NCBI GenBank assembly: GCA_963744145.1
Contig: CAVUSO010000001.1
Coordinates: 3,616,001-3,680,000, forward strand
DNA length: 64,000 nucleotides
Direction: 5' to 3'
DNA from: an uncultured cyanobacterium
Lineage (GTDB): Bacteria > Cyanobacteriota > Cyanobacteriia > Cyanobacteriales > CAWUOF01
Shown here: in pieces, positions 37,818-45,399 of the stretch
Layout of the letters: the number at the start of each line of letters is the position of its first letter
Numbering within the stretch: the stretch's first letter is position 1
Notes under the pieces: generated by a model
Databases searched by the model: none
What the model saw: only the letters and a program-made list of their open reading frames with translations
What the model was told of the DNA's origin: nothing
Translations under genes and position numbers: made by a program

Positions 37818-40019
37818 ATGTTACAGTTAGAACCTGCCCAAGTTGGGCTAATGGTCGAAATAGATTATCAAATAATTCATGCAGTACCAGGAAGATTGCG
37901 GGTTCGCATTCCCCGACTCAAGAGCGACGAAGATTTTACTCATAAACTATGTTGGTTGCTCAAAACTTCGCCCCAAGTTTTAGAAGTCCGACTCAATTTG
38001 CCAATTAGTAATCTGATTATTCATTATTCATCCCACCAGATTAGTTTAGCTACGATCGAAGCTCAATTATTTGATCTCATGCACCAGTCGCTGAAAAAGG
38101 ATTTACCTTTACCTGTGCGATCGCATGAATTAGAACCGCGTCGAGAAATTAATCATCTCGAAAAATTAGTTTTACCCTTTCTGGGTTTAGCGATCGCTAT
38201 CCCTACCGCAATCATCGAATTTCCTCCATTATTTTTCGGCGGAACTATAATTATCATTGCGGCCATTCCCCTATTTATATCTACCCTGAAGCAAATTCAA
38301 AAAGAACAAAAATTAACTCTTGATGTGATGGAATCTTTATGGACAATCCTCCATACTCTAGAAGGACATTTAATTGCACCAGCATTAGCATTAAGTTTTG
38401 AAGGAACCTGGACGGTATTGCGAGATCAAACAGCTAGTCCGGTTGATTATCATGCAATTAATCTGAGATTAGAAGGAGTGTATACTCATGTCAAAAGAGG
38501 TGGAAAAGAAGAGCAAGTTTTGATCAAAGAAGTGCAAATTGGGGAACAGGTAGTTGTTTATCCAGGAGATAGAATCCCCGTTGATGGTGAGATTTTAAAA
38601 GGAAAAGCAACGATTGATCAGCATAAATTAACTGGTTGTCCGGATGTAGTAGTAAGACATCCAGGACAAAAAGTTTATGCTGCTACTTTAGTAATGGAAG
38701 GAAAATTAACTATTCTCGCTGAAAAAACTGGAAGTGATACCCAATTAGGTAAGATTATTCACTTGATTAAACACGCACCAGTTCATGATACCAGAATCGC
38801 TGATTTTGCCGAAGATGTGGGTAATATCACGATCTTACCCATCTTATTCCTCAGTTGGACTTTATTTGCGACGACGGGAAATATTAACCAAGCATTAGCG
38901 TTACTCCAATTAGACTTTGCGACAGGAATTCGACTCTCTTCTGCAACTGCGGTATTAACTGCGATCGCTCGTGCTGTTAAGTATGGGGTATATATTCGTA
39001 ATGGGCACACCTTAGAAATGTTAGCTCGGGTTGATACAGTCGTATTCGATAAAACCGGAACATTAACTCAGATTCATAGTGAAGTAGTTGATATTCATAC
39101 TATTGATGATCATATTAGTCCTTTAGAAGTTTTAAGTTTAGCAGCAGCAGTAGAAGGTAAATTAAATCATCCTTATTCTCAAGCAATTGTTCATTTTGCT
39201 GAACAAAAAAATGTTCTTAATCACGTAGAATGTGAATCCTGGGAATATAAAATTGGTCAGGGGATAATTGCCCAAATTAATGGGGAGCAAATCTTAGTAG
39301 GAAGTAAAAAGTTTTTCCGGAAAGCAGGGATTAAAGTCAAAGCACTACGTCATAAACATCACAGTTTAAAACATAGTGGTCACACCCATGTTTATGTGGC
39401 TAAAAATCACCAATTATTAGGTGTAATTTGTTTAAATAATCCCATCCGTCCGGAAAGTATTGAGGTGATTTCTCAACTCAAAACCAAGGGAATTGAATCC
39501 TATATTTTAACCGGAGATCATCCCAAAGCAGCACTAAAGATCGCTCAACAGGTCAATATTGAAGCGAGCAATATATATTCAGATGTTTTTCCAGATCAGA
39601 AGGTAGAAGTGTTAAAGCAACTAGATGAAGAAGGAAGGATAGTAGCTTATATTGGGGATGGATTAAATGATGGAGCTGGATTAGCTTATGCTGATGTTTC
39701 TGTTTCTTTTGCGGAAGGAAGTCATACAGCTCGTCAAACTGCCCAAGTGGTATTGATTAATAATAATTTGCAAGGATTAATGATTGCTATTACGATCGCT
39801 AAACAGGCTATGTCAGCAGTTTATCAAAATATCGGTTTGATTTCTTTTCCGAATGTTAGTGTAGCTCTAGCAGGTCTGATGCTCGGGTTAGATCCAATTA
39901 TGGCTGTCATGGTTAATAGTGGTTTTATGACCTTAGCTGAATTAAATGGACTGCGACCACTGTTAGAGGTAATCGAAACTCCCCAAGCCCCAAAAAGCCA
40001 ACAAAATCAGTTATCATGA
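37818..40019 (+). CDS. P1B-type ATPase (non-CPC, P1B-6/FezB-like) with a basic HMA-like N-domain; TGE motif altered
   Basis: HAVPGRLRVR N-domain, PGDRIPVDG, LTGCP, LDFATGIR, DKTGT, HP, TGD, GDGLND. Confidence 0.88.
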   Translation: MLQLEPAQVGLMVEIDYQIIHAVPGRLRVRIPRLKSDEDFTHKLCWLLKTSPQVLEVRLNLPISNLIIHYSSHQISLATIEAQLFDLMHQSLKKDLPLPVRSHELEPRREINHLEKLVLPFLGLAIAIPTAIIEFPPLFFGGTIIIIAAIPLFISTLKQIQKEQKLTLDVMESLWTILHTLEGHLIAPALALSFEGTWTVLRDQTASPVDYHAINLRLEGVYTHVKRGGKEEQVLIKEVQIGEQVVVYPGDRIPVDGEILKGKATIDQHKLTGCPDVVVRHPGQKVYAATLVMEGKLTILAEKTGSDTQLGKIIHLIKHAPVHDTRIADFAEDVGNITILPILFLSWTLFATTGNINQALALLQLDFATGIRLSSATAVLTAIARAVKYGVYIRNGHTLEMLARVDTVVFDKTGTLTQIHSEVVDIHTIDDHISPLEVLSLAAAVEGKLNHPYSQAIVHFAEQKNVLNHVECESWEYKIGQGIIAQINGEQILVGSKKFFRKAGIKVKALRHKHHSLKHSGHTHVYVAKNHQLLGVICLNNPIRPESIEVISQLKTKGIESYILTGDHPKAALKIAQQVNIEASNIYSDVFPDQKVEVLKQLDEEGRIVAYIGDGLNDGAGLAYADVSVSFAEGSHTARQTAQVVLINNNLQGLMIAITIAKQAMSAVYQNIGLISFPNVSVALAGLMLGLDPIMAVMVNSGFMTLAELNGLRPLLEVIETPQAPKSQQNQLS

Positions 40020-40049
40020 TGCTAAACAGCATTTGGAAGCAAAAGGTAG

Positions 40050-41075
40050 GTGATCCCGATGCCAGAAACTAATCCAGACCAAGTAAATAAATCCCCAGAA
40101 CCATCATTTTGGGAGAGTCTAACTCAATCAGTAATAGATAATGTTAGTGATGTCATAGATCGTACTACTGCTGAAGCGGGAAAAGCGATCGCTGATACCA
40201 CCACCAATGTGGAGTCAGTGATTAATCAAGCGGGAAAAGCGATCGCTGATACCACCACCAATGTGGAGTCCTCGATCAATCAGATGACGAGCGGAATTAA
40301 CAGTGCGATCGCCCAAATCACACCCGATCACGCTGAAATTCGGACTAAAGCTGAAGAAATTGGTGGTGGATTTGCTGGTGCTATAGCAGGAGAAGTGATT
40401 GGTGGTACAATCGGCGGGATTGCGGGCACAGTAGTATTAGGTCCAGTCACTGGTACAATCCTAGGAAACCAATTGGGTAGCTTCATCGGATTCATCATTG
40501 GTGCTCAAGTCGGAGAAGAAGTAGTCCTGCAATCTCGTCCGGTAAAAATTGGTGCGGTAGAAAAAATTAATTCCTTTGAAGAACGCTTAAAACTGGGTTT
40601 GCGAAAACGCGGTGGTGACAAAGTTGGTGATGCAGTTGGTGCGATTACAGGAGGAGTAATTGGTGGTACAGTATTAGGTCCAGTTGGAGTTGTTATTGGT
40701 TCATCCATTGGTGGTGCTTTTGGTGGTCGAATTGGAGAAGATGCAGCACTAGCTCTTGATTACTTAGGAAATCAAACATCACCAACCCCAGATCCAGATA
40801 AATCTGAATCGATCGCTACCTGGTTTGATTCCACCAGTAAAAGTTTTGTAGGTGAATCCGTAACTACTACGGTCGGAGGAATCGTCGGTGGAGCAGTTTT
40901 GGGTATACCAGGAAGTAATTTGGGACGGAAATTGGGGACATTTGTGGGCAGAAAACTCGATTGGAATGGTATTTTAGAAAGTCCACCAGTTCTATCCCCA
41001 GCACTAGAAAGTCAATCAGTTCAAACTCAAGATTTAGAAAATTCACCAGTTCAATTACTAGAGTCATCAAATTGA
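40050..41075 (+). CDS. ccyA: Calcyanin-like protein with three long glycine zippers (GlyZip)3
   Basis: Three ~45-55 aa GxxxG runs centred on LGP/LGP/LGIP, a Trp before the third, ending GRKLDW; helical acidic N-terminus. Confidence 0.62.
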   Translation: MIPMPETNPDQVNKSPEPSFWESLTQSVIDNVSDVIDRTTAEAGKAIADTTTNVESVINQAGKAIADTTTNVESSINQMTSGINSAIAQITPDHAEIRTKAEEIGGGFAGAIAGEVIGGTIGGIAGTVVLGPVTGTILGNQLGSFIGFIIGAQVGEEVVLQSRPVKIGAVEKINSFEERLKLGLRKRGGDKVGDAVGAITGGVIGGTVLGPVGVVIGSSIGGAFGGRIGEDAALALDYLGNQTSPTPDPDKSESIATWFDSTSKSFVGESVTTTVGGIVGGAVLGIPGSNLGRKLGTFVGRKLDWNGILESPPVLSPALESQSVQTQDLENSPVQLLESSN

Positions 41076-41110
41076 CCCCAGATATTAACTTAGGGTTAAA
41101 TTATTAAATC

Positions 41111-44358: not shown

Positions 44359-44378
44359 ACTCATCATGGAGAAAAGCA

Positions 44379-44534
44379 ATGGATAATATTCTGAAATTGA
44401 TTGGTAAATTAACTCTATTTACCGTTGGGGTTGTCAGTTTAACGATCGGTGTGATTGGTGTGATTGCACCTCTAATTCCTGGGACACCTTTTCTGATTAT
44501 ATCAAGTCTCTGTTTTGCTATGTTAGGAACTTAA
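44379..44534 (+). CDS. 51-aa DUF454/YbaN-like membrane mini-protein (not in the ORF track)
   Basis: Hand translation MDNILKLIGKLTLFTVGVVSLTIGVIGVIAPLIPGTPFLIISSLCFAMLGT; GGAG RBS; GxxGxxxPxxPxxPF motif. Confidence 0.75.
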   Translation: MDNILKLIGKLTLFTVGVVSLTIGVIGVIAPLIPGTPFLIISSLCFAMLGT

Positions 44535-44559
44535 ATTTGTCCTCATCATAGGTAATTTT

Positions 44560-45399
44560 ATGCCAAACCCATCCAAGCAAAATACCTACCAAGTTGTGCA
44601 TCAAACCTTGGGACGTATCCGCATCTCAATTCCTAAACTTAGGTATGATTCAGGTTATGCAGCTCAATGTTTACAGTTGGTTTCTGCTCTGGATGGGATT
44701 ACTAATGTGAGAATTAATCCAGCCGCAGCTTCGATGATTATTAATTATAAGATTAATGTCATTAGTTCTGAGGGAATTGAAGATTATCTGGTTGCTGGTC
44801 TGGGTCAATTAATTTCCCGTAGTCCCCAACCATCTGGTCGGTCACAAGAATCTTCATCGGTAGATCAATCTGGTGAGGTAAATTGGGAAGAGGAAATCGT
44901 TGAAAAAGTAGATGAAGAAATTGGTGCTTCCGTGGGAGAAAAATTTGGAGAAGTAGTTGGAGGTACGGTTGGAGCTTTTTTACTAGGAGAAGAAGGACTC
45001 AAGATTGGCTCAGAACTGGGAGAATTAATTGGGGAAAATTTGGGAGAAGAAGCTGGTCGGGCGATCGCTCACGCTAGCGGATCTGATTCCGGACATGAAA
45101 AACATCCTGCACCAAAAGATTTTGGTGAAATTGTAGCTGAAGTAGAACAGGAGTTACCCCATAAAATAGAAGAAGTTGCTGGAGCCGAAATGGGTCAAGT
45201 AATTGGTGAAACTATAGGAGAAATTGTTGGGGAAGTGTTATTAGGACCAATCGGGATGGTAATTGGTGCAGAAATAGGAGCAGCAGTTGGTGCAGAATTG
45301 GGAGAAGAATTCGTAGAAATGATTGAGCATCAAGAGCATCAAGAACATCAAAAACATGAAAAACACCAAGAACACCAAGAACATCATTCTAATCATTAG
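44560..45399 (+). CDS. Basic HMA-like (CoBaHMA-like) domain + two acidic glycine zippers + His/Glu-rich tail
   Basis: YQVVHQTLGRIRI...VRINPAAASMIINY; two Glu-rich GxxxG runs (LLGEEG, LLGPIG); HQEHQEHQKHEKHQEHQEHHSNH. Confidence 0.8.
   Translation: MPNPSKQNTYQVVHQTLGRIRISIPKLRYDSGYAAQCLQLVSALDGITNVRINPAAASMIINYKINVISSEGIEDYLVAGLGQLISRSPQPSGRSQESSSVDQSGEVNWEEEIVEKVDEEIGASVGEKFGEVVGGTVGAFLLGEEGLKIGSELGELIGENLGEEAGRAIAHASGSDSGHEKHPAPKDFGEIVAEVEQELPHKIEEVAGAEMGQVIGETIGEIVGEVLLGPIGMVIGAEIGAAVGAELGEEFVEMIEHQEHQEHQKHEKHQEHQEHHSNH

Follow-up and report, generated by a model that had tools for sequence, protein, structure and literature searches.

How do cyanobacteria concentrate calcium (and strontium, barium and radium) into intracellular carbonate? 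The question is raised by a locus of six co-oriented open reading frames (ORFs), ~7.6 kb in length, at positions 37818 to 45399 on the plus strand of a 64,000-nucleotide stretch of DNA from an uncultured cyanobacterium, referred to as the window. According to excerpts of PMC11773610, no equivalent calcium pump has been found in cyanobacteria. An earlier note on this DNA had described the locus as a calcyanin-like gene embedded in a ferrosome-like cluster of P1B-type ATPases that could store calcium, iron or another metal. As detailed below, the locus combines a calcyanin gene (ccyA) with two ATPases, ATP1 and ATP2, from a sister family of the ferrosome ATPase FezB, and an intact pump of the ATP2 kind (clade B) shows near-obligate co-occurrence with ccyA across genomes. 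The locus is most likely a membrane platform handling what we infer to be Ca2+ for intracellular carbonate.

The second gene (40050, with a GTG start 30 bp after ATP1, or 40059, with an ATG start, to 41075, plus strand) encodes a protein of 338–341 residues with three glycine-zipper (GlyZip) hairpins. The suspicion that this protein is a calcyanin held: a profile that we built from the C-terminal domains of nine calcyanins of other genomes, the window protein and its close relatives being excluded, matched it with an E-value of 6.5e-47 (at Z=1e6) over 94% of the profile (positions 10–217 of 222). The published definition is a C-terminal (GlyZip)3 that a calcyanin profile matches with >60% coverage and E<1e-20 (10.64898/2025.12.07.689555; this source, like PMC8890360, PMC11773610, 10.1101/2024.07.07.602159 and 10.1101/2021.10.01.462712, is cited from excerpts). 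The nine references were first retrieved with a profile that included the window protein, and are anchored by three source names, published neighbourhoods and sequence patterns. Calcyanins are marked by a Gly-X3-Gly periodicity, a central Gly-Pro break and a Trp and a Glu in GlyZip3 (PMC8890360; 10.64898/2025.12.07.689555). In the window protein (CcyA), the GlyZip centres lie at G128-P129, G207-P208 and G282 (the third being GI), and GlyZip3 contains W255, E266 and W302, of which W255 and E266 are invariant across 19 sequences.

Calcyanins of the Y type have a duplicated N-terminal domain of ~66 small-residue-rich amino acids, and those of the W type an N-terminal CoBaHMA domain (PMC8890360). 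The window CcyA resembles the Y type in its (GlyZip)3, central Gly-Pro, GlyZip3 Trp and Glu, and length of 338–341 residues, but it has one Y-like unit instead of two and GI for GP in GlyZip3, and its gene is flanked directly by ATPase genes and not by cax or bicA as in Y-type loci. Its helical N-terminus contains the single Y-repeat-like unit and a 54-bp tandem duplication (40174–40282); the unit matched each half of the duplicated Y-like domain with E-values of 3e-6 to 4e-3, the Y references having been picked by their published description. The C-terminal domain matched a three-GlyZip Y-like protein at E 2e-43 and clustered in a tree with two-GlyZip Y-like proteins (ultrafast bootstrap 87). 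Neither Pfam HMA_2 nor our own CoBaHMA profile matched CcyA, which sets it apart from the W type. On the profile match and these signature residues, gene 2 is a true calcyanin gene; its N-terminus appears to be Y-type-related. Its structural model is weak (predicted local distance difference test (pLDDT) score 56.5), with helix breaks that coincide with the GlyZip centres. Weak Pfam and NCBIfam matches of CcyA (apolipophorin, OmpA glycine zipper and others) were set aside as compositional, a tblastn search of CcyA against a plasmid set that did not include the Fischerella NIES-4106 plasmid gave no match, and the lineage has few close relatives (six loci).

ATP1 (37818..40019, plus strand, 733 residues) has one HMA_2/CoBaHMA domain, and ATP2 (41743..44358, plus strand, 871 residues) has two; HMA_2 is equated with CoBaHMA by 10.1101/2024.07.07.602159. 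The HMA-like domains named in the earlier note were recovered with Pfam HMA_2 (cut-off 30), which scored ATP1 at 33.0, ATP2 at 37.1 (two copies) and gene 6 at 40.6. Likewise, both ATPases lack CPC and CxxC, transmembrane helix 4 (TM4) reads LDFATGIR in ATP1 and LDLGTGIR in ATP2, and the HxxxxRxR motif lies at residue 21 in ATP1 and at residue 123 in ATP2; the N-terminal Arg-rich motif of FezB-related P1B ATPases is present in both. Both pass TIGR01525 (cut-off 346) with 428 and 489 bits and score far under the CopA and ZntA equivalog cut-offs. FezB itself (P1B-6) is defined by D[Y/F]SCA in TM4 and HNxxT in TM6 (10.1101/2020.01.10.902569). An identity with FezB, to which the ferrosome comparison pointed, fails on both motifs: TM4 has DFATG in ATP1 and DLGTG in ATP2, and TM6 has NSGFM and NNGSA, respectively.

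Phylogenies of 94, 139 and 260 sequences (FastTree, with Shimodaira-Hasegawa supports) placed the ATPases accordingly: they do not group with CPC-bearing copper and zinc pumps, which fall outside, and DYSCA pumps are sister (support 0.97–1.0) to a broad D-x-x-T-G-I-R family that contains ATP1 and ATP2. A search of 1.84 billion clusters yielded 116 representatives that were placed; the motif is D-x-x-[TS]-G-I-R in 64 of these, DYSCA in 12, CPC in 10 and another one in 30. ATP1 and ATP2 share clade B of this family (support 0.99, 109 sequences), and the 260-sequence tree has no DYSCA sequence inside clade B or within the seven nodes above it. By motif and tree, both ATPases belong to the sister family of FezB and are not FezB. 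The sister group of clade B (P0045, P0047, P0048, P0050, P0051, P0080 and P0126) again has intact and degenerate branches, and two of its clusters are named from Synechococcus/Cyanobium sources.

Clade B divides into two subclades, and the two window ATPases fall on either side. ATP2 retains TGE, DKTGT, HP and GDGIND, and TGE, DKTGT and GDGxND are intact in 57 of the 58 sequences of its subclade. ATP1 retains DKTGT and GDGLND, but its catalytic TGE is TGC (TGI, TGS, TGT or NGD in close relatives), a change that the earlier note does not mention, and at least one of the three motifs is altered in 48 of the 51 sequences of its degenerate subclade. P-type ATPases require the TGE glutamate for their dephosphorylation. 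The ratio of nonsynonymous to synonymous substitution rates (dN/dS) was 0.12–0.21 in six pairs of altered paralogues (0.15–0.18 for relatives of ATP1) and 0.06–0.14 in four pairs of intact ones, which argues that the altered ATP1-type proteins are not decaying but are under purifying selection. ATP1 is a catalytically altered yet conserved paralogue, and ATP2 the intact pump. Polar residues in the ATP2 membrane region are D470, T473, R476, N774, N782, N803, N804, E811 and N813. Across the 58 sequences of its subclade, Cys, His and Met never exceed 20% in any column of TM4 or TM5–6; relative to FezB, the TM4 Cys is replaced by Thr and the TM6 His by Asn, and TM6 shows an NN..E pattern with an extra Glu in 44 of the 57 intact ORFs. 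An AlphaFold model covering residues 115–825 of ATP2 (pLDDT 83.9) has the six-helix P1B fold, with ZntA and CopA as the best Foldseek matches (TM-score 0.71–0.76); we found no solved structure from the D-x-x-T-G-I-R family, and CopA and ZntA are the nearest.

We next compared the distribution of the clade-B pump with that of ccyA, leaving the window's own genome out of all counts. Of 33 distinct ccyA genomes, 32 have a clade-B pump (31 full, and one as a contig-edge fragment with 73% identity), and these span W-, X-, Y- and Z-like calcyanins. In a draw of 400 genomes from the phylum, the pump was present in 9 of 10 genomes with ccyA compared with 6 of 390 others, and in a draw of 350 from the order, it was present in 6/7 genomes with full ccyA, 2/2 with truncated ccyA and 12/341 others. 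Within genus g29, which is polymorphic for ccyA (17 genomes), six of seven carriers and none of ten non-carriers have the pump, two of the latter having only a 46%-identity relative. In the closed g29 genome G651, ccyA and the pump lie 0.78 Mb apart, and linkage alone therefore does not explain their co-occurrence. The order of G125 (48 genomes, 35 of good quality) has the pump in 13/13 genomes with full ccyA and 1/2 with a fragment, two genomes with the pump only and 31 with neither gene. In the family of G059 (176 genomes), a full pump hit lies 13–19 kb from ccyA on the same contig in 7/8 genomes, the eighth having a contig-edge fragment; here the pump was found in 7/8 genomes with other GlyZip proteins and in 10/160 without any match. 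Judged by these counts, the link between ccyA and the pump reaches far beyond the window locus.

These counts depend on how both genes were called. Clade-B membership was assigned with a score threshold set against the first tree, and in the final tree clade B took in every ATPase included from loci retrieved afterwards. In 11 of the 33 ccyA genomes the call rests on match score and coverage, the ORF not having been excised. The first pass scored only 2–19 candidates per genome, and divergent calcyanins and pumps of Cyanobiaceae would escape; five suspected misses searched again for ccyA were all negative. Proteins with GlyZip1 and GlyZip2 only, or with HMA_2 plus acidic GlyZips, were excluded from the ccyA tally once their ORFs had been inspected (G418, G501, G596, G479, G682, G733, G735, G740, G747, G752, G777, G796, G583 and G248). 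Genomes with truncated or fragmentary ccyA (G591, G638, G825, G699 and G703) were kept separate, and four of these five have the pump.

Several variant genes came to light in the same survey. W-type ccyA genes end after GlyZip2 at L116:1477-2283, L117:653-1459 and L158:1498-2352, and in L116 and L117 no GlyZip3 was seen in any frame just 3' of ccyA. His-rich proteins with GlyZip1 and GlyZip2 only are encoded at L003:16304-16912, L034:1489-2157, L127:5651-6400, L128:1536-2162 and L129:13516-14361; four of these five lie in clade-B loci, in genomes where ccyA was not found or not sought. These proteins may be calcyanin substitutes. An orphan Z-like ccyA in G300 (L145:9419-10516), without cax or DUF5132 neighbours, is predicted to mark a genome positive for ccyA and negative for intracellular amorphous calcium carbonate (iACC).

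To which cargo does clade B point? Genes next to 41 clade-A and 38 clade-B loci of the ATPase family, a subset of the loci collected and several of the latter from related or the same genomes, divide by clade. feoA/B adjoin 12 of the 22 clade-A loci with the TM6 His, no other clade-A locus and none of the 38 clade-B loci. Conversely, cax occurs in 7/38 clade-B loci, DUF1345 in 9/38 and a P2-type cation ATPase in 2/38, compared with 0/41 clade-A loci in each case; in Y-like blocks, cax adjoins ccyA and is followed by a DKTGT-less paralogue. Fur and DUF2202 were absent among the recurrent neighbour families, with no profile search aimed at either. The split between feo and cax indicates that the family consists of a His-bearing, iron-associated branch and an oxygen-ligand-only branch associated with cax and ccyA. 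The neighbour pattern thus favours Ca2+ as the probable clade-B cargo, with Mn2+ also compatible, and iron, one of the stored metals suggested earlier, becomes the least likely. As a separate matter, D-F-V-T-G-I-R ATPases of cyanobacteria that carry the TM6 His and lie beside feoA/feoB, often together with DUF5132 and HMA_2 genes (L063, L068, L071–L073, L078, L080, L082, L083, L085, L087 and L092), are a candidate ferrosome-like iron system in cyanobacteria.

The gene order in relatives bears on which genes of the locus belong together. Six loci have close relatives of the window ccyA (five metagenomic, two of them identical, and one from a metagenome-assembled genome). An ATP1-type gene lies co-oriented directly 5' of ccyA in all five loci with upstream DNA (four distinct), across gaps of 5–134 bp that are retained although ccyA identity is only ~45–50%. 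Genes for an ATP2-type pump and a DUF5132-like protein lie downstream of ccyA in 6/6 loci, inverted in 4/6; DUF454 occurs in one locus and the gene-6 type in none. Consequently, the six-gene order as a whole is not conserved, but two units are: ATP1 with ccyA, and a downstream unit that is often inverted. None of 60 ATPase-centred loci (≤20 kb, phylum draw) contained ccyA, and DUF5132-like and HMA_2 genes were common there, so that the pump module is widespread without an adjacent ccyA. A lipid-kinase-like protein is fused to or next to HMA_2 in some loci.

Overall, we give an about even chance to the following joint reading of these comparisons. The module would have descended from the same stock as the ferrosome (fez) clusters and have become tied to calcium instead of iron. 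ATP2 would be an ATP-driven transporter of a hard divalent cation, most probably Ca2+, which would pass a site with oxygen ligands only (Asp/Thr in TM4, Asn in TM5 and Asn/Asn/Glu in TM6), and ATP1 would be its slow or non-cycling partner, acting as scaffold or regulator. Like FezA/PacL-type proteins, the DUF5132-like protein, the DUF454 protein and the GlyZip hairpins would gather the pumps into a patch of membrane, and calcyanin, coupling the pumps to carbonate, would be the add-on that makes a general cation platform a calcium-concentrating site for iACC. Expression of ccyA alone in PCC 7942 did not lead to iACC (PMC8890360) and deletion of cax3-4 left iACC unchanged (PMC13642857), which leaves room for another transporter; the clade-B pump is a strong candidate for the calcium supply. 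Further, the full calcyanin at L131:5109-6059 (G404) has an N-terminus with a weak match (24 bits) to the DUF5132-like profile and may represent another N-terminal type, arising by fusion with a module protein; together with the CoBaHMA N-terminus of the W type, it suggests that calcyanin N-domains were drawn from the same module. A bolder version, possible but in our judgement doubtful, is that the pumps of clade B keep the P1B fold but have been adapted to an alkaline-earth ion (Ca2+, and Sr or Ba) and are the missing iACC transporter. A single ancestral kit (Arg-rich/CoBaHMA domain, GxxxG hairpins, small transmembrane scaffold, and a pair of intact and pseudo-ATPases) would then have given rise to the iACC compartment and the ferrosome as sister organelles, in which the switch from Cys/His to Thr/Asn/Glu would set the mineral and calcyanin would license carbonate storage.

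Several observations weigh against calcium handling for iACC. The pump was found without ccyA in 32 further genomes, about half of the clade-B genomes, and thus is not specific to ccyA; conversely, G300 (99% complete, 450 contigs) has ccyA but no clade-B pump. The counts were made without a species tree on related genomes from ~6 lineages and overstate independence; Fisher tests were given no weight, since related genomes are not independent. ATP2, and not ATP1, passes the cadmium-family model TIGR01512 (339.8 vs 313.5), the TM6 Glu is Gly in 9/57 intact pumps, including those of the ccyA-positive genus g29, and MntP-like genes are about as frequent beside clade B as cax (6/38, and 0/41 beside clade A). 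The only cax match in the window's genome lies 3.2 Mb away, outside the locus. Cyanobacterial iACC is said to be without a lipid bilayer (PMC11773610), which is awkward for a vesicle-filling pump, and the pump may instead act at the plasma or thylakoid membrane. Two Chlorogloeopsis strains, one with iACC and one without, have an identical block (PMC8890360), and the module is therefore not sufficient for iACC; a loss of the ATPases from the negative strain was ruled out for the same reason. More generally, iACC was observed in 13 of 17 inspected ccyA strains (PMC8890360). For genome and proteins alike, the case for calcium is one of sequence comparison.

Much of this would also suit a transition-metal efflux platform of the PacL/Ctp kind (most probably for Mn2+, otherwise for Zn, Cd or Co), with ccyA co-travelling since iACC formers would need to keep out competing metals, and not because of calcium transport by the pump. 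Mn2+ also prefers oxygen ligands; the MntP-like neighbours, the His-rich tail of gene 6, a P1B fold nearest to ZntA and CopA, and the many clade-B genomes without ccyA all fit, as does the organisation of efflux platforms with P1B6-like ATPases by small transmembrane proteins (10.1101/2021.10.01.462712). We nevertheless consider efflux rather unlikely, given the cax and P2-type neighbours of clade B, the cax abutting ccyA in Y-like blocks, the lack of soft ligands for Zn, Cd or Cu in the membrane site and the 6/7 versus 0/10 split within g29. The co-occurrence, counted in g29 as elsewhere without a species tree, could instead reflect a history in which ccyA and the pumps were inherited or transferred as a block, or mobile island, and are functionally independent. 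Blocks on plasmids and with a ParB gene, the 13–19 kb spacing in Y-like genomes and the concentration of ccyA carriers of the order of G125 in three genera agree with such a history, but both genes persist far apart in the closed genomes G651, G140, G276, G398, G384 and G533, neither gene occurs in 31 of the 48 genomes of one order, and the short ATP1–ccyA gaps survive at ~45–50% ccyA identity, all of which makes it unlikely.

Two further explanations dispense with calcium pumping. If the system shaped or supplied the inclusion's envelope, by membrane remodelling and by binding of anionic lipid or polyphosphate to basic CoBaHMA surfaces, with ion pumping secondary, then the many hairpin-forming GxxxG proteins, the lipid-kinase-like protein with HMA_2 and the conservation of catalytically altered ATPases (48/51 of the ATP1 subclade) would be accounted for; however, it is the fully intact pump (57/58), with its conserved polar membrane residues, that follows ccyA most closely, and we regard this explanation as quite improbable. 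An iron-storing ferrosome cluster with ccyA merely as an extra GxxxG protein is very improbable, even though the ATPases are sister to FezB, Arg-rich HMA-like domains, small transmembrane proteins and a second ATPase occur as in fez (10.1101/2020.01.10.902569), and the FezB loci L096/L097 contain CoBaHMA-like ORFs: D[YF]SCA and HNxxT are absent, no clade-B locus has feoA/B, and the iron-linked neighbourhood belongs to His-bearing clade A, of which the window genome has no member.

Calcium handling by clade B, if correct, would give P1B pumps a substrate outside the transition metals and tie together two mineral organelles of bacteria. The comparison names one motif-recognisable ATPase clade, tells its intact pump apart from degenerate partners and points to a 7.6-kb cassette suited to reconstitution. 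The adjacency itself is not new: the earlier note knew of no characterised locus with this combination, but ccyA next to P-type ATPases has been published for Cyanothece PCC 7425 (PMC13642857, 2026), without functional data. Two cation ATPases near ccyA are reported on a Fischerella plasmid (PMC8890360), and supplementary table 3 of the same 2022 source lists the Chlorogloeopsis block, with no comment in the excerpts. The window locus is like those of Cyanothece PCC 7425, Chlorogloeopsis fritschii and the Fischerella NIES-4106 plasmid in that two or three P-type ATPases lie near ccyA (the C. fritschii contig has ccyA, cax, a COG2217 'HAD' protein, two heavy-metal P-type ATPases and DUF454; PMC8890360), and blocks equivalent to the published loci contain clade-B pumps; unlike them, it is compact and without cax or bicA. 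With adjacency published and mutants reported to be under way, novelty is limited. New here are the clade-B classification, the genome-wide, often unlinked co-occurrence with its 6/7 versus 0/10 split in g29, the lack of conserved Cys, His or Met in TM4 and TM5–6 of the intact pumps, and the divide between cax and feo neighbours; in the literature on calcyanin, ferrosomes and P-type ATPases that we searched, neither a classification of these ATPases nor their co-occurrence with ccyA is reported. A 2024 paper on CoBaHMA in Proteins reportedly has P1B-ATPases among the CoBaHMA architectures and may mention FezB, which would lower the novelty.

Other systems share parts of this arrangement. The Microcystis ccyA neighbourhood (10.1101/2024.07.07.602159) likewise has DUF5132, DUF454, CoBaHMA and GlyZip-like neighbours, partly co-expressed, but there cax is adjacent and the ATPase is unlinked and, in the excerpts, not listed as a neighbour. 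The fez clusters (10.1101/2020.01.10.902569) share the Arg-rich HMA-like N-domain, the six-helix P1B fold, small GxxxG partners and sometimes a second ATPase; unlike them, the window and clade-B ATPases have Thr for the TM4 Cys and Asn for the TM6 His of the FezB motifs, with no feo, Fur or ferritin-like neighbours seen (Fur not searched by profile). FezH is a second Arg-rich P1B ATPase with distinct transmembrane sites (10.1101/2020.01.10.902569). In PacL–CtpC (10.1101/2021.10.01.462712), a small single-transmembrane protein is also encoded next to a P1B6-like ATPase, but CtpC retains CPC and HN; homology of DUF5132 to DUF1490/DUF6110 is at most putative.

The remaining genes of the locus are small. 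The six co-oriented genes stood as first described, including the 30-bp gap between ATP1 and ccyA; the subsequent gaps are 234, 67, 20 and 25 bp. Gene 3 (41310..41675, plus strand, 121 residues) encodes an N-terminal hydrophobic segment and an amphipathic helix; its DUF5132-like label stood in part, there being no Pfam DUF5132 match but 54% identity to a RefSeq DUF5132 protein and 38% identity to a protein above the Pfam DUF5132 cut-off. A profile of 100 DUF5132-like proteins gave a best E-value of 0.033 against 44 small ORFs of two FezB loci. Gene 3 is FezA/PacL-like in architecture, with homology to these at most putative. The 51-residue hydrophobic hairpin at 44379..44534 (plus strand) passed Pfam DUF454 narrowly (35.6 vs 35.1), as its label implied.

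Gene 6 (44560..45399, plus strand, 279 residues) combines HMA_2/CoBaHMA, two acidic GlyZips and a His-rich tail that derives from a 9-bp repeat (x6.6, 45328–45386). It gave two split partial matches to the calcyanin profile, both to profile positions 72/84–162, and lacks the W/E/W motif of GlyZip3; because this signature is absent, gene 6 is not a calcyanin and was rejected as a second ccyA. The gene-6 family recurs in clade-B loci of other genomes. The sole other CoBaHMA gene in the genome (4409852–4411009 of contig C1, outside the window) appears by eye to be fused to a DMT/EamA-type transporter-like part.

The whole genome has one ccyA, one DUF5132-like gene and two D-x-x-T-G-I-R ATPases, namely ATP1 and ATP2, and the GC content of the locus matches that of the window. 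The six genes may form two transcription units, the second starting in the 234-bp gap, where a sigma70-like promoter (41111..41138, plus strand) is a consensus match only (10/12), and a weak one, such sites being rarer in the region than in shuffles (13 vs 23). Short, similar AT-rich dyad motifs at 41084–41098 and 41136–41148, on both sides of this site, are possible regulator sites. Upstream lies the divergent htpG (35591–37561) and downstream a YbjN-family gene convergent with gene 6; a clpB-like gene (by eye) follows 5 kb downstream of the locus (50442–53135), and neither htpG nor a clpB-like gene was seen beside related loci.

Elsewhere in the window, 17443–33815 holds four tandem filamentous-haemagglutinin-like genes (750–830 residues, with a TPS domain confirmed in one), followed by CHAT/TPR, DUF928 and CHASE2/histidine-kinase genes. 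The regions 523–8883, 34752–35282 and 57934–62589 contain a P450, an AMP-binding/carrier protein gene, several transposase genes (34752–35282 being, by eye, a transposase remnant) and a PIN-domain gene. Finally, 46228–49911 encodes a protein of 1227 residues that has an eCIS-core domain as well as a Cys/His-rich stretch; a 45-bp tandem repeat lies in its gene (48851–49038).

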